Below, piece after piece: positions 22,752 through 63,889 of a stretch of DNA of 64,000 nt (the first letter of the stretch is position 1; every line of letters starts with the position of its first letter). The notes under the pieces are model-generated. The model did no database searches. It was not told where the DNA came from and saw only the letters and a program-made list of their open reading frames with translations. Position numbers and translations under genes: made by a program. Source of the DNA: a virus; the IMG/VR virus record IMGVR_UViG_3300042882_001046, positions 1 through 64,000 of that record, one strand, 5' to 3'.

Positions 22752-23843
22752 ATGAAAAAAATAGTAGTATTAGGCGGAGGAGGGTTCATAGGTGGACACC
22801 TTGCCAAAAGATTAAAAGAAGAAGGAAATCACGTAAGAGTATGTGATATTAAAAAACACGAATACTTCTTTCAAGACGAGTTCTGTCATGAATTTATTTT
22901 AGGAGATTTAACAGACCCTAAAGTTGTAGAACTTGTAATTGAAGAAGGTGTTGATGAAGTATATCAACTTGCTGCCGATATGGGTGGAGCATTGTATATC
23001 TTTACAGGTGAACACGATGCAGATGTTATGTATAATTCAGCAACAATTAATCTTAACGTAGTAAGAGAATGTGTTAAGAAAAAAGTGGGTAAAGTATTCT
23101 ATTCATCATCAGCATGTATGTACCCTGAACACAATCAGTTAGACCCTGAAAATCCAAATTGTGAGGAATCATCGGCTTACCCTGCTAACCCTGATTCTGA
23201 ATATGGATGGGAGAAACTATTTTCAGAAAGATTATACTTGGCTTTTAATAGAAACTACGGTTTAGATGTTAGAGTTGCAAGATTCCACAATATCTTTGGA
23301 CCTCAAGGTACATGGACAGGTGGTAGAGAAAAATCACCAGCGGCAATGTGTAGAAAAGCTGCTGAAGCTAAAGACGGAGACGTTATTGAGGTTTGGGGTA
23401 GCGGAATGCAAACTCGTTCTTTCTTATACGTTGATGAATGTGTTGAAGCGGTATTGAGATTAATGGAGAGTGATTTTGTTGGTCCTGTTAATATTGGTAG
23501 TGAAGAAATGGTTACAATTAATCAATTAGCAGGAATGGCAATTGCAATTTCAGATAAAGATATAGAAATCAAAAATATTGAAGGACAACAATTTATTGAT
23601 AAGTATGGTTTCAAATGTCCATTAGGTGTTCAAGGAAGAAATTCAGATAACAAACTTTATAGAGAAAAAGTTGGTTGGGAAGTTAGTCAACCACTTTCTA
23701 TAGGACTTAAAAAAACATATCAATGGATTAAATCACAAGTTGATAAAAAAGAATTAGAAACTAAATGGATTTATGAAAGTCCAGATGGAGAAACGATTTA
23801 CAAAAGAGAGATTGGAAATGTTGAAAGACATAAAATTAAATAA
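22752..23843 (+). CDS. GDP-mannose 3,5-epimerase-like extended SDR
   Basis: GGGGFIG, LAADMGG, SSSACMYPE, YGWEK and GGREKSPAAMCRK, with the GME catalytic Cys and Lys positions present. Confidence 0.88.
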   Translation: MKKIVVLGGGGFIGGHLAKRLKEEGNHVRVCDIKKHEYFFQDEFCHEFILGDLTDPKVVELVIEEGVDEVYQLAADMGGALYIFTGEHDADVMYNSATINLNVVRECVKKKVGKVFYSSSACMYPEHNQLDPENPNCEESSAYPANPDSEYGWEKLFSERLYLAFNRNYGLDVRVARFHNIFGPQGTWTGGREKSPAAMCRKAAEAKDGDVIEVWGSGMQTRSFLYVDECVEAVLRLMESDFVGPVNIGSEEMVTINQLAGMAIAISDKDIEIKNIEGQQFIDKYGFKCPLGVQGRNSDNKLYREKVGWEVSQPLSIGLKKTYQWIKSQVDKKELETKWIYESPDGETIYKREIGNVERHKIK

Positions 23844-23849
23844 TTAAAA

Positions 23850-24584
23850 ATGGGTAAAGTATTAAAACCTAAACCTACCTCAACTTTGTCAAGTGACGAA
23901 GTTCCAGTTAGAAATAAGAAACAGCAAATCTGTTCAATAATTAAACGAAAAACAAAAGAAAAATTTTTATCAGAAAGTCAAAAAGAATATTATAGTAAAT
24001 TATCTTCAAATCAAATTACAATATGTTCAGGTCCAGCAGGTGTTGGTAAAAGTTATATCGCAATGAAATGTGCGGTAGATTTATTAGCCGACCCAAACAC
24101 ACCATATGAAAAAATAATCATAGTAAGACCAGCGGTTGAAGCTGAAGAAAAATTAGGTAGTTTACCTGGTGGTGTTGAAGAAAAATTAGACCCATATATT
24201 TTCCCATCATATTATTTGTTAAATAAAATAATTGGAAAAGAATCTAGAGAAAAATTAAAAGAGATTGAGGCAATCGAAGTTTTTGCCTTGGCTTACATGA
24301 GAGGGATGAATATTGATAATTCAATATTAATATTTGAGGAAGCTCAAAATTCAACCCCGAGTCAAATGAAACTTTTATTAACAAGAATTGGATTTAATTC
24401 TAAATTTTTTATCTCGGGTGATTTGGAACAATTTGATAGACACAAAGATAAAACTCACACAGGATTGTGGGACGCACTACAAAAATTTCAAAATATGAAT
24501 GATGTTGGCGTATTTGAATTTAAATCTACAGACATTGTTAGAAATCCATTAATTTCAAAAATATTAGAAAGATACGAAGAATGA
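23850..24584 (+). CDS. phoH: PhoH-family ATPase
   Basis: GPAGVGKS, YMRG, FEEAQN, LLTRIG and IVRNPLI. Confidence 0.93.
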   Translation: MGKVLKPKPTSTLSSDEVPVRNKKQQICSIIKRKTKEKFLSESQKEYYSKLSSNQITICSGPAGVGKSYIAMKCAVDLLADPNTPYEKIIIVRPAVEAEEKLGSLPGGVEEKLDPYIFPSYYLLNKIIGKESREKLKEIEAIEVFALAYMRGMNIDNSILIFEEAQNSTPSQMKLLLTRIGFNSKFFISGDLEQFDRHKDKTHTGLWDALQKFQNMNDVGVFEFKSTDIVRNPLISKILERYEE

Positions 24585-53740: not shown

Positions 53741-54041
53741 ATAATTTCCAATCTTTGAGCGGCGTTAATTCATTTATTTTTTGAAGAAGTGGCATTACAT
53801 AATCCTGTACTTCTTTTTTAGTTGCATCGAATCCGTAATCTTTAACCGATGCAATGACTTTATTTAGTTTGTTTTGGAATCTTTCTTGTAAGTTCATCAT
53901 TTTCATCGTGTAAGTTGGAGGACTTTCTAAATCTGATTCACTAAATCCTAATTCTTGTAAATGTTGTCTAAGCTCCAAATATATGTCTAAAAGCTCTCTT
54001 AGTATAGACGCAGTTGCCAAAAATTTCTCAAACGGTTTCAT
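53700..54041 (-). CDS. Hypothetical protein
   Basis: Likely start MKPFEKF at 54041, 5 nt after TATTTAT (54047-54053). Confidence 0.65.
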   Translation of the reverse strand: MKPFEKFLATASILRELLDIYLELRQHLQELGFSESDLESPPTYTMKMMNLQERFQNKLNKVIASVKDYGFDATKKEVQDYVMPLLQKINELTPLKDWKLYDSKRDDSGNEDY

Positions 54042-54052
54042 ATTTAATAAAT

Positions 54053-54628
54053 ATGGACTACACCGATACTTTTCTATTACACGGTAAAATTGATGTTGAC
54101 CCAATCATAAAAATCATTACTGATAATAATTTGGATTGGGATGAATACACCGAAAGACAAAATAAATGGGGTACAGAACATCTATACACCAAAACAATAC
54201 CAATAATTTTTGACAAGTCTTTTAATTTTAATCATTTAAAAATTATTCCAACCGAAAATTATCCATTGTTTATTGACGAAATTTCAAAAATAGAAGAACA
54301 AATTAAATCAAACACAGGTGAAAGCGGAAAAATTATGAGAGCCCTATTGGTTAAATTAACGGCAGGTAAATTAATTAGACCTCACGTTGATACCGTAGGG
54401 TTTAGTTTAGTTGTTTGTAGAAGAATCCATATTCCAATTCAAACTAATGATGAATGTTTCTTTACTGTCGGTGATGATAAAAGAAATTTAAAGATTGGTG
54501 AAATGTGGGAAATCAACAACGACAAAAAAATGCACTCGGTTGAAAATTTTGGAAGTACTGACAGAATACATTTGATTGTAGATTGGGTTGAGGAATCATT
54601 ATTTGAAAAATATGATAGACAAAACTAA
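54053..54628 (+). CDS. Asp/Asn beta-hydroxylase-like 2OG-Fe(II) oxygenase
   Basis: IRPHVD..RIHIP..HSVENFGSTDRIHLIVD; likely ATG at 54053. Confidence 0.85.
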   Translation: MDYTDTFLLHGKIDVDPIIKIITDNNLDWDEYTERQNKWGTEHLYTKTIPIIFDKSFNFNHLKIIPTENYPLFIDEISKIEEQIKSNTGESGKIMRALLVKLTAGKLIRPHVDTVGFSLVVCRRIHIPIQTNDECFFTVGDDKRNLKIGEMWEINNDKKMHSVENFGSTDRIHLIVDWVEESLFEKYDRQN

Positions 54629-55277
54629 AAAACTTATTGTTTTGATGCCGCCCAAAACCGCATCAAATTCTATACGAGTCTTATTGGAGCAACATGGTTA
54701 CTTTTTTTCTAAAGACTCTAAAAAAACAAATTACCCCCAAATACATTTAAGGTTAAGTGAAATTGTGGATTTCTACAATATCAATAATTTAGACGAATAT
54801 AGAATAATACAAATTACCAGAAACCCATATCATCGGTACGTCTCGTCTTTTTACTTTCAAAAAAAAATTATCCCTCAAAACTTCTCTGTTAAATTTAAAG
54901 ATTATACTTTAGAACAATTTTCAAACCATTTATTGGAATCAAAAAAAACAAATAATTTTATTGATAATTTTTATGGTGATTCGTCATTTGTTAATCACAC
55001 AATTAATAATGGTATTAGTTGGGGTGGGACCAGATTTTATGATAAACAATTTGATTGGAATGATTTGGGGATGGACGTAAAATATTTTAAGTTAGAAAAC
55101 ATAATTGATGATATAAGTGAATTAGAAAATTTTTTAAATCTACCTATTAAAACTTTACCATTAATAAATTCACAAGGATTGAATGTTGATTATCTATCTT
55201 TAATAACACCAAAAATTCAAGATATTATTATTGAATTATTTGGAGAAGATTTTGATAAACTTAACTACTCAAAATAA
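54612..55277 (+). CDS. Sulfotransferase family 2 protein
   Basis: PKTASNSIR (5'-PSB) and RNPYHRYVSSF (3'-PB); likely ATG at 54612. Confidence 0.8.
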   Translation: MIDKTKKLIVLMPPKTASNSIRVLLEQHGYFFSKDSKKTNYPQIHLRLSEIVDFYNINNLDEYRIIQITRNPYHRYVSSFYFQKKIIPQNFSVKFKDYTLEQFSNHLLESKKTNNFIDNFYGDSSFVNHTINNGISWGGTRFYDKQFDWNDLGMDVKYFKLENIIDDISELENFLNLPIKTLPLINSQGLNVDYLSLITPKIQDIIIELFGEDFDKLNYSK

Positions 55278-55306: not shown

Positions 55307-55687
55307 TTACTTTTTCAAGTTTTTAATTTGGTCTCTAAGCTCAATTGATTTTTCAAACTCTTGGTTTTCAATTGACTTCTTTAATTCCAATTCAAGTTTC
55401 TCAATAGATTTTTGATTTTTTTCAAAGCCTTTGATTTGGTCTCTAAGTTTAACTGCCGATTCAAAATCTTCGTTCTCAATTGCTCTTTCAAGTTGATACT
55501 TTAAAGATTCTAATCCTCCTGTTTCTTTAGATGAGTCTCCTCCTCTATAATAAGTTGTTACTTTTATTGTACCATCATCAGATACTCTACTTTGCGATTT
55601 CCATTCCCCTTGGGTTAAATCAAAATGAGAGAACATTTCATCAAACGCTCTAAAGATGTCATTGTAGTTTTTTCTGTTTCCAAACAT
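55307..55687 (-). CDS. Tandem UVR (UvrB/UvrC motif) protein
   Basis: LERAIENEDFESAVKLRDQIK and LKKSIENQEFEKSIELRDQIK. Confidence 0.85.
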   Translation of the reverse strand: MFGNRKNYNDIFRAFDEMFSHFDLTQGEWKSQSRVSDDGTIKVTTYYRGGDSSKETGGLESLKYQLERAIENEDFESAVKLRDQIKGFEKNQKSIEKLELELKKSIENQEFEKSIELRDQIKNLKK

Positions 55688-55857: not shown

Positions 55858-57873
55858 ATGAACGACTTAATGGACGATGACGACAAAATGATGAGTAAGA
55901 AACAGAAATCGACTGGCGACAGTACGACTCCTGTGTTAGACAACTTCAGTCGAGATTTGAATAAACTTGCTGAGGAAGGTAAATTGGACCCTGTCATTGG
56001 ACGTGACAGAGAGATTTTGAGAATAGCTCAAATTTTATCTCGTAGAAAAAAGAACAACCCAATCATCGTTGGTGAACCTGGTTGTGGTAAGACCGCAATT
56101 GTGGAAGGTTTGGCGATGAAGATTGTTAGTGGTGAATGTCCACGTAATCTTTTGGATAAACGTTTAGTCAATCTTGACTTAACTTCTGTTGTTGCTGGTA
56201 CAAAATACCGTGGACAATTTGAAGAGAGAATGAAGGTAATTATCGAAGAACTTCAAGCAAATCCTAACATCATTGTATTCATTGATGAAATCCATACTCT
56301 TGTAGGTTCTGGTAATTCTGCAGGTTCTATGGATGGTTCAAACATTTTTAAACCCGCACTTGCTCGTGGTGAAGTCCAAGTAATTGGTGCCACCACATTG
56401 GATGAGTTCCGTAAGAATATTGAAAAAGACGGAGCGTTAGAACGTAGGTTTCAAAAAGTTGTGGTTGAACCTTCAACTGTTGTTGAGACAATTCAAATCT
56501 TGAAAAACGTTCGCGACAAATATGAGTCTTATCATAAAGTCACGTATTCTGACGAGGTTATTGAAACTTGTGTTAAGTTGGCAGACCGTTATATCACGGA
56601 CCGTGAGTTCCCTGATAAAGCATTTGACATCTTAGATGAAGTTGGAGCTCGTATGCAAACAGAACTTAAAGTTCCTGAAGTTGTTGAAGAGTTAAAACGT
56701 AAAGCGGCTGAAATCAAACAACAAAAAATTGATGTTGTTAAGAAACAAAACTACGAACAAGCTGCTCAGTTAAGAGACAAAGAGAAAAAGGTATTGGATA
56801 AATTGGAGGATGAAAAACGTAAGTTTGAAGAACAGATGTCAAAAGACAAACAAAAAGTTACATTAGAGGATGTGTACGATGTTGTTTCAAACATGACCAA
56901 AATTCCTGTAAACAAAATGTCTGTTGATGATACCAAAGCTTTGTTGAACTTGGATAAACACATTGTTGGTACCGTAATCGGTCAGGACGCCGCTGTTATT
57001 AAAGTGGCTAAATCTATCAAAAGAAATAGATTGGGTATTAAAGACCCGAACCGTCCGATTGGTTCATTTGTGTTCCTTGGTTCAACAGGTGTTGGTAAAA
57101 CTCACTTGGCAAAACAATTGGCTAAGGAAATGTTTGGTAGCGAAGATTCATTAATTCGTGTGGATATGTCCGAGTACCAAGAGAAACACACCGTATCTAA
57201 ATTGGTTGGAGCCCCTCCAGGTTATGTTGGATACGAAGAAGGTGGATTGTTAACTGAAAAAGTTAAAAACAAACCATATTCAGTGATTTTATTTGATGAG
57301 GTTGAAAAAGCTCACAAAGATGTATTCACAGTATTACTACAAATCTTGGACGATGGTCACGTTACAGATAGTTTAGGTAGAAAGATTAACTTCAAAAATA
57401 CCTTAATTATCTTAACCTCAAACCTTGGGGTTAAAAAATTACAGGACTTTGGAACGGGTATTGGATTCGGTACAAACTCTTACAGTAATGAAGAGGCAAA
57501 AAAAGACATTTTGATGAAAGAGATGAAGAACTTCTTCTCTCCTGAGTTTATCAACCGTATTGACGATACTATTGTTTTTAACTCACTTTCTCAAGAAGAT
57601 ATCAAAAAGATTACGGATATCGAACTTAAAAAATTGATGAAACGTCTTGAAGATATGAAGTACAAGATTAATTATGACGATAGTTTAGTTGAGTACATTG
57701 CAAAAATTGGATATGATGAAAGTTATGGGGCAAGACCTATGAAAAGAGCAATCCAAGACAAAGTGGAGGACTTACTATCCGAAGAAGTTCTAACCGACAA
57801 AATTGTGGAAGGTAAATCTTACGTGATTAAGGTTGAGGACGAAACGGTAAAGGTCGTTAAAAAAGGACGATAA
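55858..57873 (+). CDS. clpC: ClpC-type AAA+ unfoldase lacking the N-terminal Clp-repeat domain
   Basis: Walker A GEPGCGKT and GSTGVGKT, UVR-type M-domain (QNYEQAAQLRD), ClpP-docking GIGF loop; 671 aa starting just before NBD1. Confidence 0.92.
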   Translation: MNDLMDDDDKMMSKKQKSTGDSTTPVLDNFSRDLNKLAEEGKLDPVIGRDREILRIAQILSRRKKNNPIIVGEPGCGKTAIVEGLAMKIVSGECPRNLLDKRLVNLDLTSVVAGTKYRGQFEERMKVIIEELQANPNIIVFIDEIHTLVGSGNSAGSMDGSNIFKPALARGEVQVIGATTLDEFRKNIEKDGALERRFQKVVVEPSTVVETIQILKNVRDKYESYHKVTYSDEVIETCVKLADRYITDREFPDKAFDILDEVGARMQTELKVPEVVEELKRKAAEIKQQKIDVVKKQNYEQAAQLRDKEKKVLDKLEDEKRKFEEQMSKDKQKVTLEDVYDVVSNMTKIPVNKMSVDDTKALLNLDKHIVGTVIGQDAAVIKVAKSIKRNRLGIKDPNRPIGSFVFLGSTGVGKTHLAKQLAKEMFGSEDSLIRVDMSEYQEKHTVSKLVGAPPGYVGYEEGGLLTEKVKNKPYSVILFDEVEKAHKDVFTVLLQILDDGHVTDSLGRKINFKNTLIILTSNLGVKKLQDFGTGIGFGTNSYSNEEAKKDILMKEMKNFFSPEFINRIDDTIVFNSLSQEDIKKITDIELKKLMKRLEDMKYKINYDDSLVEYIAKIGYDESYGARPMKRAIQDKVEDLLSEEVLTDKIVEGKSYVIKVEDETVKVVKKGR

Positions 57874-57914: not shown

Positions 57915-58523
57915 ATGAGTAATTTTTCAAAACTATTAGACCATTTTAGACAAAGTTTCCCAGACGAATTAAAGTCCAAGGTTGACGTTATTGAAAAATT
58001 TGTTGTTAACTATATTAAAAAACACAACATTACAGTTAAGTTTTTAAATTCGTGTGGTACTGGTTTTAGTGGGGTTAGAACAAGAGACCAAGTAATTATT
58101 TGCTCACCAGCAAACATGAGAACTATCGGTGATTTTTTATACACCATATTTCATGAAATTCGGCACGAACAACAAGTTAGGGATATAAAAATGGATAACC
58201 CACTTACTGATTACGATTTAGAAGATTTTGAAAAATTATATCAGCAATATTGGGAAATGGAGTTGGATGCCGACCAGTTTGCAAAAAATATGATTGCTAA
58301 ATTAGTTATTAAATTAAACATACCCATTTGGTTTGCAAAAGGTCAATTCGGACTATCTTATTATATTGAACAATATCCTTCTATGTCAAAATCAGTTGAG
58401 ATGTCTTTGAGGTCAATTGTGTCAACAATTCAACACCTAAAAAAATCGGGGGCCGAGTATGAAGACATACAAGACCACCCGATGGTTAAAAGGTTTATAG
58501 ATAAGTTAGAAAATTTTATCTAA
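57915..58523 (+). CDS. HExxH metallopeptidase-like protein (ImmA/IrrE-like)
   Basis: FHEIRH plus downstream ELDADQFA. Confidence 0.6.
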   Translation: MSNFSKLLDHFRQSFPDELKSKVDVIEKFVVNYIKKHNITVKFLNSCGTGFSGVRTRDQVIICSPANMRTIGDFLYTIFHEIRHEQQVRDIKMDNPLTDYDLEDFEKLYQQYWEMELDADQFAKNMIAKLVIKLNIPIWFAKGQFGLSYYIEQYPSMSKSVEMSLRSIVSTIQHLKKSGAEYEDIQDHPMVKRFIDKLENFI

Positions 58524-59369
58524 TTAGAATAACAAATCTCTATTGTTATAACTGTATTGTTTTGCTTCTTTAAAGTGTAGGGTGTGTCCCAAATCCTGAA
58601 TCATTTTTCTACCCATTTCAATCCCATTGAACACGTCATCAATAACGACATATTCATTTGGAGTGTGATAATCATAATACCCAATCGAGAAGTTAATACA
58701 AGAGAAGTCAAATTTACCTCTTAAGGCATAAACGTCAGTATATGGGTGAACCATGTATCTCATATCTTCATTAACCATTCCTTCGGTTAGGACTTTATCA
58801 ATTTTTTGGAAGAAGTCTGAATCTCTATCAAACAAAACTTGACCAAAACATTTTTCAGTAATCATCCAGTTTTCAGGGGCATCAAATTGGATTCCGTATC
58901 CAACATTTTCAAAAAACTTTGGGTCGGCAACTCTTGAGCCATGACATCCTGTTTCTTCAGATACAAAAAATGCTGCTTTTAGATATGGTAATTCTTTTAA
59001 TAATGTTAAACAAGCAAATACACCACATTTGTCATCACCACCAATACCAGTTGGTTTCCCCTCATTGTTATAGGCTTTGAGGGATGGTTTTAACACGTCT
59101 TGTGCGTTTGGTAACATCATTTCTTTGATGTTAATTGTATCAATATTGTGAACGGTGTCTGTGTGAGAAATTACACACGGGAAATAAAAATCTTCAGGTA
59201 GTTCTGAATTTTCTTGTTTTGTTGCATAGACATTCATTTTGTCATCAACATAATGGTCTATATTGTTTTCAGTCAACCAATTAACCAAGAATTCCACCAT
59301 TTGGTGTTCTTGATAGGTTTTTGTGGGTACACTTAAAACTTCTTTTAGAAGTGCTATTTTTTCTGTCAT
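58524..59369 (-). CDS. M28/M20-family metallopeptidase
   Basis: SHTDTV, GGDDKCG, SEETGCHGS and QFD. Confidence 0.85.
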   Translation of the reverse strand: MTEKIALLKEVLSVPTKTYQEHQMVEFLVNWLTENNIDHYVDDKMNVYATKQENSELPEDFYFPCVISHTDTVHNIDTINIKEMMLPNAQDVLKPSLKAYNNEGKPTGIGGDDKCGVFACLTLLKELPYLKAAFFVSEETGCHGSRVADPKFFENVGYGIQFDAPENWMITEKCFGQVLFDRDSDFFQKIDKVLTEGMVNEDMRYMVHPYTDVYALRGKFDFSCINFSIGYYDYHTPNEYVVIDDVFNGIEMGRKMIQDLGHTLHFKEAKQYSYNNRDLLF

Positions 59370-59373
59370 AGCA

Positions 59374-59405
59374 CAAAGATAAGAATAATTTATATTTCAT
59401 CCAAA
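59374..59405 (-). promoter_or_regulatory. Bacteroidetes sigma-A-type promoter
   Basis: Minus-strand TTTG (59402-59405), 20-nt spacer, TATCTTTG (59374-59381), then 4 nt to ATG 59369. Confidence 0.75.
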
Positions 59406-60436
59406 TTAAATAATGTTGGTTGATATAATAAATTATAAAAATTATCCTCAGACAATTTAACTTTTTTCTGTTGGAATCCTTTTTGTAGTATTACCACTAC
59501 TTTCATACCAGGGTATTCAAATCCTTCGATTTTGAATCTGGTTTCTTTTTTTGGGTCTTTAGGTAGATTATAAAATTTGTCTTGTTCAAATTTTTTAGTA
59601 ATTCTATCAGTCATTTCAGTGAAGTCGTGAACAGTAACTCCGTCTTCTCCTGGACCGTCTTCCAATTTTTCTAAAATATCATCTAATTTTCTCGAAGTAT
59701 AATTATTGAAACTTTCTGTGTCAAAATTATCGTCGTTCATATATTGATACGTGTCATCGGCCCAACCTCCTGGAGATGTTACGTTTCGTATTATATCATC
59801 AATCAAATCTTCAAGAGATAAGTGTATTTTATTTTCTTTTAAATACAACATTATCAGGTTAGCAACCGTGGTTCTGAATCCGTCACCATAAGATTCAAAC
59901 CCAAGTTGGTCCAAGAATTCATCAAATTCTTTATTAACCGAGTCTCTAGCACTTGTCCGAGCCTCACTGTTTCTTTCTGATTGATAATCTGAAATTATAT
60001 CTTCCGTTTCACGTCTAAAGTTAGTTAATAGTTTTTCTGAAAGTTGGTTTCTAAATTGTTCACTGTCAAAATCTACTTTAATTGGTAGAATTATCTTTGA
60101 AATTTGTGCGAGTTTTTCTTTATTATCATCATTCAAATTATAATATAGTCCCCAACCATTCTCAAAATCTTCTTTAGCCGAATGCCAATCCATAAATTCG
60201 TAATCACTATATGGAGAATTGATTACACGATAGAACCAACTGTCATCATCACTAAGACCCATCGCCTCTAAAAACTTTTCCTCGTTTTTAAACTCAACGT
60301 TAATCTTACTTTGACCTCTGTTCTGTCTATCTTCCCTTACTTCAGTGAATAACTCGTCCGCGTTTTCAAGTTCGTAAGCATTTATCTTACCTCTAACGTA
60401 GTTCCTTAAAGCAATGAATGTGTCTAATACCGCCAT
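59390..60436 (-). CDS. Hypothetical protein
   Basis: 348 aa; TATTTAT at 60443-60449. Confidence 0.75.
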   Translation of the reverse strand: MAVLDTFIALRNYVRGKINAYELENADELFTEVREDRQNRGQSKINVEFKNEEKFLEAMGLSDDDSWFYRVINSPYSDYEFMDWHSAKEDFENGWGLYYNLNDDNKEKLAQISKIILPIKVDFDSEQFRNQLSEKLLTNFRRETEDIISDYQSERNSEARTSARDSVNKEFDEFLDQLGFESYGDGFRTTVANLIMLYLKENKIHLSLEDLIDDIIRNVTSPGGWADDTYQYMNDDNFDTESFNNYTSRKLDDILEKLEDGPGEDGVTVHDFTEMTDRITKKFEQDKFYNLPKDPKKETRFKIEGFEYPGMKVVVILQKGFQQKKVKLSEDNFYNLLYQPTLFNLDEI

Positions 60437-60459
60437 ATGAATATAAATACAACTTCCAC

Positions 60460-60490
60460 TTGGATTTAAACATATTTATACTTACCTTTG
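60460..60490 (+). promoter_or_regulatory. ssrA promoter region (TTG..TACCTTTG, with overlapping TATTTAT)
   Basis: TACCTTTG 60483-60490 lies 20 nt after TTG; TATTTAT at 60473-60479. Confidence 0.65.
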
Positions 60491-60509
60491 TAATGTTCTT
60501 TGAAAATAT

Positions 60510-60932
60510 GGGGATGAAATGGTATCGATTGGCATTGTTGGGGATAAGTGGCACGTAGTCAGAATTCATCTATGACTTTAATCTATGGTGAAGACAATTA
60601 GCTGGCAATACTTTTGCTAAGATGGCGACTTTAGGTTTAACTAGAGAAGCTTCTGTTGTAGCTGCCTAAGAGGTAGTCACAACCGTTACTCCAACCAAGT
60701 TGGTGTAACCTCGGGTCGATTAGGACGTTAACCTAGGAACAGAAGTCCAATATACGGGTCACAGGTCAGAGCTCGTTTAAAATAATTCTGAGACCAGGTT
60801 GTTTGTAAGTTTGGTTCCCACATACATCAAACTTAATATTTCGGAACGTTGAGAAACAACGTTGTACTAAACGTGTAGTCATTTATTGTCAAAGTGAGCA
60901 AGACGCGGGTTCGACTCCCGCCATCTCCACCA
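60510..60932 (+). ncRNA. ssrA: tmRNA; predicted tag (A)GNTFAKMATLGLTREASVVAA at 60604-60669
   Basis: Acceptor stem GGGGATG/CATCTCC with G3-U wobble, A discriminator and CCA; T-arm GCGGGTTCGACTCCCGC; internal ORF ending GCT GCC TAA. Confidence 0.93.
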
Positions 60933-60943
60933 ATTTAAATTTT

Positions 60944-61336
60944 ATGGGAGTAGATTGTAATATATGTAGCAACAAGTGTTTCGGGGTACCAGGGTACCAC
61001 GGAAGTTGTTGCACCATAGAGGACCGTGATTATATCATAGGTTCTCATCACGACACCCAAGAATTTATTGACTCTCTATCTAATAAATTTGGTAGAGAAG
61101 TTTCCTATAATGAAGTGTTTGTTGATTACGAAGAGGGAAAAACTTTATTCCCAAACAAATCAACTTGGCAAAATCCAAATAGCTATCCCGCACTTCGAGT
61201 TGATTTTTACAACCCAAGATTCCCATGTATTTTTTATAACACAAAAATTAAGGCGTGTTCTGTATACGACATACGTCCTAAAACCTGTAGAGAATACGAG
61301 TGTGATTATTTAAAGGAGCACACAACCAACATTTAA
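60944..61336 (+). CDS. YkgJ-family cysteine-cluster (CxxCxxCC-type) protein
   Basis: CNICSNKC..SCC..PCIFY..CSVYDIRPKTCREYEC. Confidence 0.85.
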   Translation: MGVDCNICSNKCFGVPGYHGSCCTIEDRDYIIGSHHDTQEFIDSLSNKFGREVSYNEVFVDYEEGKTLFPNKSTWQNPNSYPALRVDFYNPRFPCIFYNTKIKACSVYDIRPKTCREYECDYLKEHTTNI

Positions 61337-61411: not shown

Positions 61412-63889
61412 ATGAAGTATTTTCTTTTATTTTTATTGCTACTTCCAACATTAGCAATTGGACAAATAACCGTAAACGGTTTAACAAAATCAAAATCCGA
61501 AAACATATATTTTTCACATATAAGTTTTAAACACTCAGACGGTGCCACATATTCAACAATTTCAAATGAAAACGCGGAATATAAATTAAACCTTAAATCT
61601 GGTTTATATACAATAAAAGCGTCATACATTGGATATAAAGAATTCACAAAAGAATTAAATGTAACGTCCGACTTAACCTTTGATATAATATTTGAAGAAA
61701 CTGAAACTCAGTTGTCAGAAGTTGTTGTAAGGGCGGCTCCACAAAAAGTAACCGAAGCATCAATTGTTAGGTCAATACGAAATAATAATGTCGTATCCGA
61801 TGGACTATCAATTGAATTTATTAAGAAAACTCCTGACAGAAACGTTGGTGACGCACTTAAAAGAGTTGGTGGGGTAACCATCCAAAACGATAAATTTGTA
61901 TTGGTAAGAGGTTTGGCAGACCGTTATAATTCTGCATTATTAAATAAAACCCCACTACCGTCAACTGAACCAGATAAAAGAGCGTTTTCTTTTGACATAA
62001 TCCCAACTTCTTTAATTGACAACATTATTGTTGCTAAATCATCGTCAGCAAATTTGCCTGGTGATTGGAGTGGGGGATTAGTTCAAATAACAACAAAAGA
62101 AGTTTCTGATAAATTTTTTAATCTGTCATTGGGAAGTGGTTGGGGTTCGGTTTCAACCTTTAGAGATTTTAAGTTAGTTCAAGCTACCGATTTCCCTTCC
62201 ACATTCCCTTCAACTTATAGATACCGTATATCATCAAACGGAGATAAAAGGGCGTATACTAAATTAATTGGTAATCCATCAGTTGAACAGACTAAATCAA
62301 CCCCTAATTTAAATGGAGGATTATCATTTGGTCACGCAAATGGAAAATGGAATTCATTATTTAGTTCTACAATTAGAAATTCATATACACTAAACAATAT
62401 TGAAAGAAAAGATTATCAATCATCAACAGAGTTAGCTTATGACTATAAAGATGTTTTATTTACAAAAAGATTTTCAACAAACAGTTTGTTTAATTTAACT
62501 TACTTGGGTGAAAATAGATACAGTTGGAAAACTTTAGTAAACTACCAAATTGAAGATTCATATCTAAACCGTAATGGCGATAATTTTGATAACGTTCAGA
62601 ATGTTTTAACAACGTCTTCGAATCATGTTAACAACGTTGTAATTAGTTCTCAATTTGACGGTAAAATTAAAACATTAAATTTTAATTTAGGATACAATTA
62701 TACGTTTAGAGAACAACCAGATTATAGGATTAATCCAATCACAAAATCATTAGGTGTTAACGAACCTTACGCAACTGCGTGGAGAGACACATATCGTTTT
62801 TGGAGTGTAATGGATGAAAACTCATTTAACGGTAACATAAATAAAGAACTCAATAATATTAAAATTGGTGGTGGGTACATTAAAAGGTTTAGAGGTTTTA
62901 ACGCTAGAATATTTCGTTATCTATCAACAGACATGATGGATGAAATAACAAACAACACCGACAGATATACTGCCGATTTTGATTTGGGGTCTCTTTACTC
63001 GATGTATGAAAACGAATTTGGTAAATGGAAAATAAATGGTGGAATAAGAGGTGAATATAATTTATTTAATGTTCAAACCGCAGATTTTAGTGGTACGGAA
63101 GTGAATGTTAACAGAAAATATTTAGACCTTTTACCTTCGTTAAATCTCTCATACAACGAAGAAAAAACAAAGTATAGATTCTCAGTAAGTAAAACATTGG
63201 CAAGACCTGAATTCAGAGAAGTTGCTAATTTTGCTTATTATGATTTTGTAAGAAATGCTCAAATATTGGGAAATTCAAAGTTAGAAAAATCTGACATATA
63301 TAATTTAGACCTTAAATACGAATGGTACCCAAAGACAGGTGAAAACATTTCGGTTTCTTTATTTGGTAAAAATTTCATTAAACCAATTGAACAAATTGTT
63401 GCAGACGGCTCAGTTCCTTCAAATCTTCTTTTAACTTACACAAACCCTAATTCAGCAATCTTATACGGTATTGAATTTGAAGTTCGTAAAAAGATAAGTG
63501 ATTGGTTTGATGTTTATACAAATGCTTCGGTAATGAATTCAGAAGTAGAAGTTAATGGTATCAAAAGACAATTACAGGGTCAATCAAACTATGTTTTAAA
63601 CGGAGGAGTAAACATACATAAAAAGAAAAACACCCTTAATTTAACTTATAATAGAGTTGGTGATAGAATATCATCTGTAGGGTTTCAGGGGTATCCTGAT
63701 ATATTCGAAAATAGTAGAGATGTATTAGACATTACATTCTTACATAAACTTTCAAAAGGAGAAATAAAATTGGCAATAGGTGATGTATTTGCTCAACCAT
63801 CAATTTATTACCAAAAGGTACAAAACCGAAATCTAATAAAAATAAACAATGAGCAAACAATTTCATTAACATTAAATCTAACATTATGA
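61412..63889 (+). CDS. TonB-dependent outer-membrane receptor (Bacteroidetes-type)
   Basis: Signal peptide followed by Q, CarboxypepD-like domain (KASYIGYK), plug (DALKRVGGV..VRGLADRYN..FDIIP) and barrel motifs (RPEFRE, NSKLEKSDIYNLDLKYEWY). Confidence 0.9.
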   Translation: MKYFLLFLLLLPTLAIGQITVNGLTKSKSENIYFSHISFKHSDGATYSTISNENAEYKLNLKSGLYTIKASYIGYKEFTKELNVTSDLTFDIIFEETETQLSEVVVRAAPQKVTEASIVRSIRNNNVVSDGLSIEFIKKTPDRNVGDALKRVGGVTIQNDKFVLVRGLADRYNSALLNKTPLPSTEPDKRAFSFDIIPTSLIDNIIVAKSSSANLPGDWSGGLVQITTKEVSDKFFNLSLGSGWGSVSTFRDFKLVQATDFPSTFPSTYRYRISSNGDKRAYTKLIGNPSVEQTKSTPNLNGGLSFGHANGKWNSLFSSTIRNSYTLNNIERKDYQSSTELAYDYKDVLFTKRFSTNSLFNLTYLGENRYSWKTLVNYQIEDSYLNRNGDNFDNVQNVLTTSSNHVNNVVISSQFDGKIKTLNFNLGYNYTFREQPDYRINPITKSLGVNEPYATAWRDTYRFWSVMDENSFNGNINKELNNIKIGGGYIKRFRGFNARIFRYLSTDMMDEITNNTDRYTADFDLGSLYSMYENEFGKWKINGGIRGEYNLFNVQTADFSGTEVNVNRKYLDLLPSLNLSYNEEKTKYRFSVSKTLARPEFREVANFAYYDFVRNAQILGNSKLEKSDIYNLDLKYEWYPKTGENISVSLFGKNFIKPIEQIVADGSVPSNLLLTYTNPNSAILYGIEFEVRKKISDWFDVYTNASVMNSEVEVNGIKRQLQGQSNYVLNGGVNIHKKKNTLNLTYNRVGDRISSVGFQGYPDIFENSRDVLDITFLHKLSKGEIKLAIGDVFAQPSIYYQKVQNRNLIKINNEQTISLTLNLTL

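Follow-up and report, generated by a model that had tools for sequence, protein, structure and literature searches.

Phages that carry tmRNA genes raise the question of what these genes are for. Large phages may carry a complete ssrA gene (PMC4131195), tmRNA and SmpB have been reported for huge phages (PMC7162821), and a tmRNA was found in 402 of 18,146 phage genomes, i.e., about 2% (PMC9004378). The encoded tag comprises 25 residues in mycobacteriophage Bxz1 and 13 in Bacillus phage G. The tag of Mycoplasma pneumoniae has 27 residues as compared with 11 for E. coli and 14 for B. subtilis (PMC8403727), and PMC8403727 and PMC3985003 describe the extended ssrA tag of Mycoplasma as retuned to Lon, not ClpXP. 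In proteobacteria, ssrA recognition is bipartite, with a site for the adaptor SspB and the C-terminal degron ALAA (PMC3985003). In the genome of Bacillus phage G (L182, JN638751, about 411.9 kb), a tRNA gene with the anticodon UUA, which would read UAA stops, is located about 55 nt upstream of the tmRNA gene.

The tmRNA gene described here belongs to a very large family of uncultured freshwater jumbo phages, which constitutes a natural experiment on this question; no published description of this long-tag phage tmRNA family was found in the literature. The likeness to the Bxz1 group, phage G, Melnitz-like marine phages and huge phages lies in a complete ssrA gene, sometimes accompanied by smpB, beside tRNA genes, and the likeness to Bxz1 extends to the long tag. 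Unlike in the published phage tmRNAs, which are unrelated in sequence and belong to phages of other host phyla, the tag has been preserved in more than 130 variants and appears to be derived from the host tag by extension, and its strict linkage partners are a ClpC without N-domain and an M20-like peptidase. As with the Mycoplasma tag and Lon, the tag has about twice the usual length or more, and here the extra residues are under selection; however, Mycoplasmas lack ClpXP, whereas the host here possesses ClpX, and the candidate reader is a phage ClpC-ClpP rather than Lon. A conserved N-proximal and internal part combined with a hydrophobic C-terminus suggests two recognition elements, as in the SspB/ALAA system, although an SspB-like protein was not identified here.

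The tmRNA gene and its phage family

The window, i.e., the whole stretch of 64,000 nt that was analyzed, represents the first 64 kb of the viral record IMGVR_UViG_3300042882_001046. The record comprises 118 kb with a completeness estimate of 39%, which implies a full phage genome of about 300 kb. Since a major head protein, a portal protein and a large terminase are encoded in the window, the tmRNA is a phage gene. For the ClpC-like gene of the window, at least 594 relatives were found on viral contigs, among them contigs of 309–321 kb, two with terminal repeats. No cultured relative was found: blastn of the tmRNA against GenBank phages returned only 31–32-nt matches to its 3' end in unrelated phages, and the top tblastn match of ClpC (58% identity) was located in uncultured phages of 635–642 kb.

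The initial annotation, made from the letters alone, had placed a phage tmRNA at positions 60510–60932 (+), and both programs applied agreed. ARAGORN detected a single tmRNA within the window, at this position, and the Rfam model RF00023 aligned end to end (model positions 1–374 of 374) at identical coordinates with 98.6 bits, as compared with a gathering score of 47 (E 2.9e-37). The gene (ssrA) has a length of 423 nt, specifies a one-piece tmRNA and encodes the CCA end. Its tRNA-like domain could be read in the sequence, with a 7-bp acceptor stem, G3:U70, a T-arm, the discriminator A and a 3' CCA. The 5' strand of the acceptor stem, GGGGAUG (60510–60516, +), contains G3 of the alanine-identity pair G3:U70 and pairs with 60922–60928. 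The T-arm, the 3' acceptor strand, the discriminator A and the CCA (60905–60932, +) match the Rfam consensus exactly.

Related loci were taken from the best 80 of the at least 594 ClpC-like matches. With an nhmmer profile, the tmRNA was found in 62 of these 80 loci, at a constant distance of about 4.6 kb from the clpC start. ARAGORN detected it in only 10 of the 80, and 4 of the 10 tags were mis-called, with a short internal tag in three loci and an implausible tag in the fourth. Surveys of phage tmRNAs based on ARAGORN would under-count and mis-read this family. A second scan of viral contigs with a degenerate tag pattern yielded at least 118 contigs, and a tmRNA was present in 79 of 79 loci checked. 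The pooled family set contained 173 copies, representing 131 distinct RNAs and about 72–75 distinct tags, all of 21–22 residues; two 23-residue and "DG..." entries were artefacts of a search pattern that started one codon early.

The fold is conserved within the family. Of 59 copies, 58 contained G3:U70 and 57 the discriminator A. Compensatory variants matched on both strands were seen in the acceptor stems, and the T-arm covaried too. In the RNAalifold consensus of 30 sequences, double compensatory changes were observed in 36 of 43 predicted pairs, with the tag region unpaired. This covariation and the recurrence of the gene in the two sets of loci go far beyond chance. Helix 2 and a hairpin at the position of PK1 covaried as well, and the Rfam alignment over PK2–PK4 was of low posterior probability. 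A scan for sigma-70 promoters and terminators around the tmRNA, which excludes promoters of the Bacteroidota type, gave nothing above shuffled sequences. The RNA thus has a tRNA-like domain with alanine identity, and its fold is conserved and covaries. Judged by sequence and covariation, the element appears to be a functional phage-encoded tmRNA gene, and trans-translation is predicted.

The host-type tag module and its extension

The tag frame is preceded by the motif TAGCT (60599–60603, +), which occupies positions -5 to -1 upstream of the resume codon and shows A at -4 and T or C at -5 in 59 of 59 copies. Together with the resume codon GGC it spans 60599–60606 (TAGCT|GGC). From GGC, 21 sense codons lead to the stop codon TAA at 60667–60669 (tag frame 60604–60669, +). 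The coding part given by ARAGORN corresponds to gene positions 95–160, stop included, and in the Rfam alignment the consensus resume codon falls on GGC at 60604. All 59 distinct copies that were examined first keep this frame open, for 21 codons in 47 copies and for 22 codons in 12, and the resume context and 21-residue reading frame that had been noticed at the outset thus stand. The tag added to stalled peptides is predicted to comprise 22 residues, i.e., 21 encoded residues and the alanine borne by the tmRNA.

Just downstream of the tmRNA, the gene 61412–63889 (+) resembles TonB-dependent receptors and shares 62% identity with genes from Aquirufa species and a Spirosomataceae MAG. This identity points to freshwater Cytophagales as the host lineage, and the host is likely Aquirufa or a relative. 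The gene is complete, with CarboxypepD_reg, Plug and OMP beta-barrel domains, and was present in 3 of 60 related loci. It looks like recent host-derived cargo, which is odd for a phage; possible roles are those of a receptor decoy, in superinfection exclusion or in nutrient uptake.

The one-piece tmRNA of Aquirufa shares with the phage RNA the family RF00023, the alanine-identity tRNA-like domain, the resume context, the first three tag residues and M-A at positions 7–8. Its resume site TAGCT|GGC AAT ACT is identical to that of the phage over 14 nt. In contrast, its tag (GNTSYAMAA or GNTQYAMAA) stops after 9 codons where the phage reads 12 more, and its RNA body, i.e., the pseudoknot region, is not alignable with the phage RNA. 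In the host phylum, a tmRNA was found in 147 of 151 sampled genomes, and the about 70 tags read had 8–10 residues, with the exception of three doubtful ARAGORN calls. The short tags on which the initial annotation had based its comparison are therefore confirmed, and even the longest tag read in that phylum has less than half the length of the phage tag. The latter had been called unusually long, which is correct relative to the host phylum but not in absolute terms, given the 25 residues of Bxz1 and the 27 of Mycoplasma. The long-tag pattern occurred in 0 of 401 Bacteroidota genomes; across these genomes and the scan of viral contigs, the long-tag version was found only on viral contigs.

The phage tag can be divided into two parts. 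Codons 1–9 (60604–60630, +) form a host-type module that aligns with the whole 9-residue Aquirufa tag: between GNTSYAMAA and phage residues 1–9, GNTFAKMAT, the residues G, N, T, M and A are common to both. Across the family, codon 7 specifies M or L in 47 of 47 cases, codon 8 A, S or E, and codon 9 mostly A or T, and in certain relatives the first nine residues look canonical, ending in L-A-A or M-A-A. Codons 10–21 (60631–60666, +) form an extension specific to the phage, whose [LIV]-G-L core is invariant and which provides a new, hydrophobic C-terminus. Its consensus is [LIV]-G-L-[ITVL]-[RK]-x-x-x-V-x-[VA]-A, in which G11 and L12 never change although their codons vary synonymously, and V18, V19 and A21 predominate. 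It is more likely than not, judging from the alignment of the tags, that the phage tag arose from a 9-residue tag of the Cytophagales type (G-N-T-x-x-x-[ML]-A-A) by loss of the stop codon and gain of an extension of 12–13 residues. This derivation is weakened by the shortness of the 9-mer alignment, by convergence that the frame-selection machinery of the host could impose, and by the phage RNA outside the tRNA-like domain not being alignable with host tmRNAs. Using blastn and the family nhmmer profile, only the 3' 65–80 nt aligned with cellular Bacteroidota tmRNAs, with at most 36 bits. A recent capture of a host ssrA gene was ruled out on this basis, and the lack of alignment beyond the tRNA-like domain indicates that the phage lineage is old.

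Purifying selection on the extra residues is supported by the conservation of the extension. The segment that the initial annotation had singled out as a possible private recognition site is thus indeed selected, with G11 and L12 invariant, but it is a C-terminal extension of a host-like 9-mer and not an internal insert. The amphipathic character ascribed to it did not hold up, as its helical hydrophobic moment of 0.38, compared with 0.29 for shuffled sequences, was reached by 26% of the shuffles. Nor is a terminal A-A, taken at first as the degron, a feature of the family: among 75 distinct tags, 49 ended in VA and 8 in AA, and GA, TA and even TI or VS also occurred. The window tag itself ends in the minority form V-V-A-A, while most family tags end in V-x-V-A. 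Canonical ClpXP-type ssrA tags have 8–14 residues and end in [AY]-[LM]-A-A; the window tag is longer and lacks a C-terminal [LM]-A-A, with [ML]-A-[AT] located internally at positions 7–9.

Linked Clp genes and candidate readers of the tag

A ClpC-type double-AAA+ unfoldase without N-domain is encoded at 55858–57873 (+), 2.6 kb upstream of the tmRNA. The protein has 671 aa, with the Pfam domains AAA, AAA_lid_9, AAA_2 and ClpB_D2-small and a weak UVR motif at 281–311, in line with the ClpC layout of two AAA+ modules, a short middle domain and a C-terminal D2-small domain. Its best solved relatives are the ClpC proteins of S. aureus and B. subtilis (E about 1e-220), and it aligns with residues 146–795 of the 818 residues of S. 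aureus ClpC. The N-terminal Clp_N domain is absent: phrog_4871 is matched only from position 157 onward, and the ClpA model only from position 148. Host ClpC, of 857–859 aa, is 57% identical to the phage protein and was matched from position 2. The N-domain of ClpC is the site of regulatory input by adaptors and phospho-arginine. The ClpP-docking loop ([LIVA]-G-[FL]) in D2 was retained: IGF at residues 543–545, within G-I-G-F at 542–545, is the counterpart of A-G-F in the alignment to S. aureus ClpC, and the tripeptide is the same as in host ClpC and E. coli ClpX.

The phage ClpC to which the initial annotation had alluded is not only present but linked to the tmRNA: each of the 60 relatives with enough sequence encodes it upstream of the tmRNA, as do 33 of 33 tag-seeded loci with at least 5 kb of upstream sequence. 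The conserved block consists of ClpC (60/60), an M20-like peptidase (60/60), orf348 (52/60) and the tmRNA. The peptidase, at 58524–59369 (-), is a short form of an M20-family-like zinc peptidase with 281 aa (Pfam Peptidase_M20, E 3.5e-6; phrog_4191 peptidase, E 1.1e-32). The conserved gene orf348 (59390–60436, -) abuts the tmRNA and had no match in Pfam, PHROG, NCBIfam or the ESM Atlas. Its AlphaFold2 model (pLDDT 90.9) gave generic helical bundles with VIA-align (best Z of 5.5) and nothing at E <= 1e-3 with Foldseek. Sequence and structure searches gave no informative match that would support a role of orf348 as adaptor or second peptidase, and the lack of a match does not point to a new fold. 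The variable gene orf202 (57915–58523, +), flanked by clpC and the peptidase gene, matched only phrog_1914, whose function is unknown (E 3.4e-5), and occurs in 21 of 60 relatives.

Divergently from clpC, a 126-aa protein with two UVR motifs is encoded (55307–55687, -; Pfam PF02151, E 1.3e-15, two stretches), which shows weak likeness to the UVR end of McsA. Since it was detected in only 29 of 60 relatives, the idea that a UVR protein recognizes the tag, raised initially beside ClpC, is weakened. No SspB-like protein was identified, and the double-UVR protein and orf348 are without a demonstrated adaptor fold. Just upstream of the UVR and ClpC genes (54014–55277, +) lie two genes that are almost confined to this phage, which suggests another recent insertion: one resembling Asp/Asn beta-hydroxylases (E 8.6e-15), with a counterpart in 1 of 60 relatives, and one resembling sulfotransferases, with counterparts in 0 of 60. 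Directly after the tmRNA, a small putative metal-binding protein of the CxxCxxCC type is encoded (60944–61336, +; weak Pfam match, E 2.7e-4), with counterparts in 9 of 60 relatives.

Further components are encoded elsewhere in these genomes and are mosaic in their distribution. ClpP, with a full-length Pfam match and visible Ser, His and Asp motifs in its translation, is encoded in the record of the window but outside the window, at about 86174–86854 (L090:1366–2046). It was also present in the complete relative G001 and in G002, and absent from the complete relative G003, which retains the long tag. SmpB was found in the complete relatives G002 and G003 and not in G001. The sites of these mosaic ClpP and SmpB parts are about 86174–86854 in G000, the record of the window, 23555–23968 in G002 and 187024–187425 in G003. 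No ClpX was found in the three complete phages, while the host has ClpX; no ClpA was found in the host, whose Clp set of that type consists of ClpC and ClpB only. With a long tag but no phage ClpP in G003, and no SmpB in G001, the parts are not an obligate set.

The best overall account of these findings, held to be somewhat probable, is that a functional phage tmRNA would encode an extended tag of host derivation, for which phage ClpC-ClpP is the leading candidate reader. Readers of the ClpX type need [ML]-A-A as a free C-terminus. The extension would bury this old end and create a new hydrophobic C-terminus together with an invariant internal motif, and it probably changes which protease or adaptor sees the rescued products. 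During infection, the phage tmRNA would use host AlaRS, EF-Tu and SmpB, or the phage SmpB in some relatives; it would thereby raise the capacity for ribosome rescue and mark the rescued products with a tag unlike that of the host. The extended tag could then be read by the N-domain-less phage ClpC docked on ClpP, which is phage-encoded in the genome of the window, and the linked M20-like peptidase may trim the resulting peptides. These last two steps, reading by phage ClpC-ClpP and trimming by the peptidase, are proposed only tentatively. That ClpC, peptidase and tmRNA are linked in related phages may reflect inherited synteny and not functional coupling, and the variable C-terminus of the tag (VA, AA, GA, TA, TI, VS) also speaks against this account.

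A stricter version, which appears rather unlikely, is an orthogonal tag-and-destroy circuit. In such a circuit, the buried host-type end would make tagged products invisible to host ClpXP or poor substrates for it, the unregulated, N-domain-less phage ClpC would degrade them with ClpP, and the M20-like peptidase would recycle the peptides to amino acids. Phage ClpC might read K...[LIV]-G-L...V-x-V-A, or the [LIV]-G-L core might dock on ClpP itself. If true, the circuit would be a virus-encoded counterpart of the switch in specificity between the Mycoplasma tag and Lon. The combination of a host-related tag, a conserved extension module and a constant, stripped-down ClpC leads to a testable hypothesis on how viruses control proteolysis and ribosome rescue, and it could provide an orthogonal pair of degron and protease of practical use.

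It is also possible, though doubtful, that host proteases read the tag. Host ClpXP, Lon, FtsH or ClpC-ClpP would recognize its hydrophobic C-terminus, the conserved internal motif would serve a host adaptor or compatibility with the ribosome and SmpB, and the phage ClpC would act in general proteostasis, unrelated to the tag. The host possesses ClpX and a full-length ClpC, and the long tag of G003 has to do without a phage ClpP. Moreover, the window tag still ends in A-A, its first nine residues and resume context mimic those of the host, and the tmRNA genes of Bxz1 and phage G sit in tRNA arrays with no Clp gene nearby. However, most family tags end in V-x-V-A instead of [ML]-A-A, the old [ML]-A-A being buried, and a specific partner is required to account for invariant G11-L12 and K6. 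In addition, the linkage to ClpC is perfect in 93 informative loci, and the phage ClpC has lost the domain that takes regulatory input.

An improbable alternative is that degradation is not the main purpose of the tag. Selection would act on ribosome rescue, with the extension shielding the products from host ClpXP, or with [LIV]-G-L binding to the pockets of ClpP. The [LIV]-G-L-[IVTL] core is present in all distinct family tags and resembles the docking loops of ClpA, ClpX and ClpC, i.e., S-I-G-L-I in E. coli ClpA and G-I-G-F in ClpX, host ClpC and phage ClpC; in addition, the phage tag holds the host-type end at an internal position. This likeness to ClpP-docking loops is weak, as it covers 3–4 residues and could easily arise by chance, and the host lacks the ClpA whose loop carries G-L. 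A hydrophobic C-terminus was kept, as expected for a degron.

Codon-level evidence for the tag frame

That the true resume codon lies further downstream, resulting in a tag of normal length, is very improbable. This alternative, which the initial annotation had named as the finding that would overturn its reading, draws on the 8-residue tags starting at internal codons that ARAGORN gave for L015, L016 and L035, yet these three loci carry the same open 21-codon frame. Among the 59 distinct copies, the only indels in the tag region were of 3 nt, and the median open length of the two alternative frames was 9 and 13 codons. The clearest periodicity of the tag was observed in codons 1–11, where the entropy at codon positions 1, 2 and 3 was 0.84, 0.36 and 1.18, respectively. 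G1, K6, G11 and L12 are preserved through synonymous codon changes, and the synonymous share of differing codons was 0.30 in frame as compared with 0.19 and 0.07 out of frame. The resume codons of the family are GGC, GGA or GAC, and the invariant A at -4, the placement of the Rfam consensus resume codon on GGC and the identical context in Aquirufa all favor the upstream start. Since codons 1–11 show periodicity and synonymous variation, as expected for translated codons under selection, and the resume context is identical to that of the host, a downstream resume codon was ruled out.

Attachment sites of phages and islands often contain the 3' end of ssrA. Although the GenBank phage matches by blastn were such 3' ends only, a dead remnant, e.g., an attP-type fragment of host ssrA or a pseudogene, is barely conceivable and was ruled out by the full-length Rfam match of a gene that has diverged strongly from host tmRNAs except in the tRNA-like domain, by its conservation in no fewer than 131 distinct versions that covary and keep a reading frame under selection, and by a genome make-up of a large lytic-type phage with no integrase seen near the tmRNA. 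On the opposite strand, a 58-aa open reading frame (60393–60569, -) overlaps the 5' end of the tmRNA gene and is most likely spurious.
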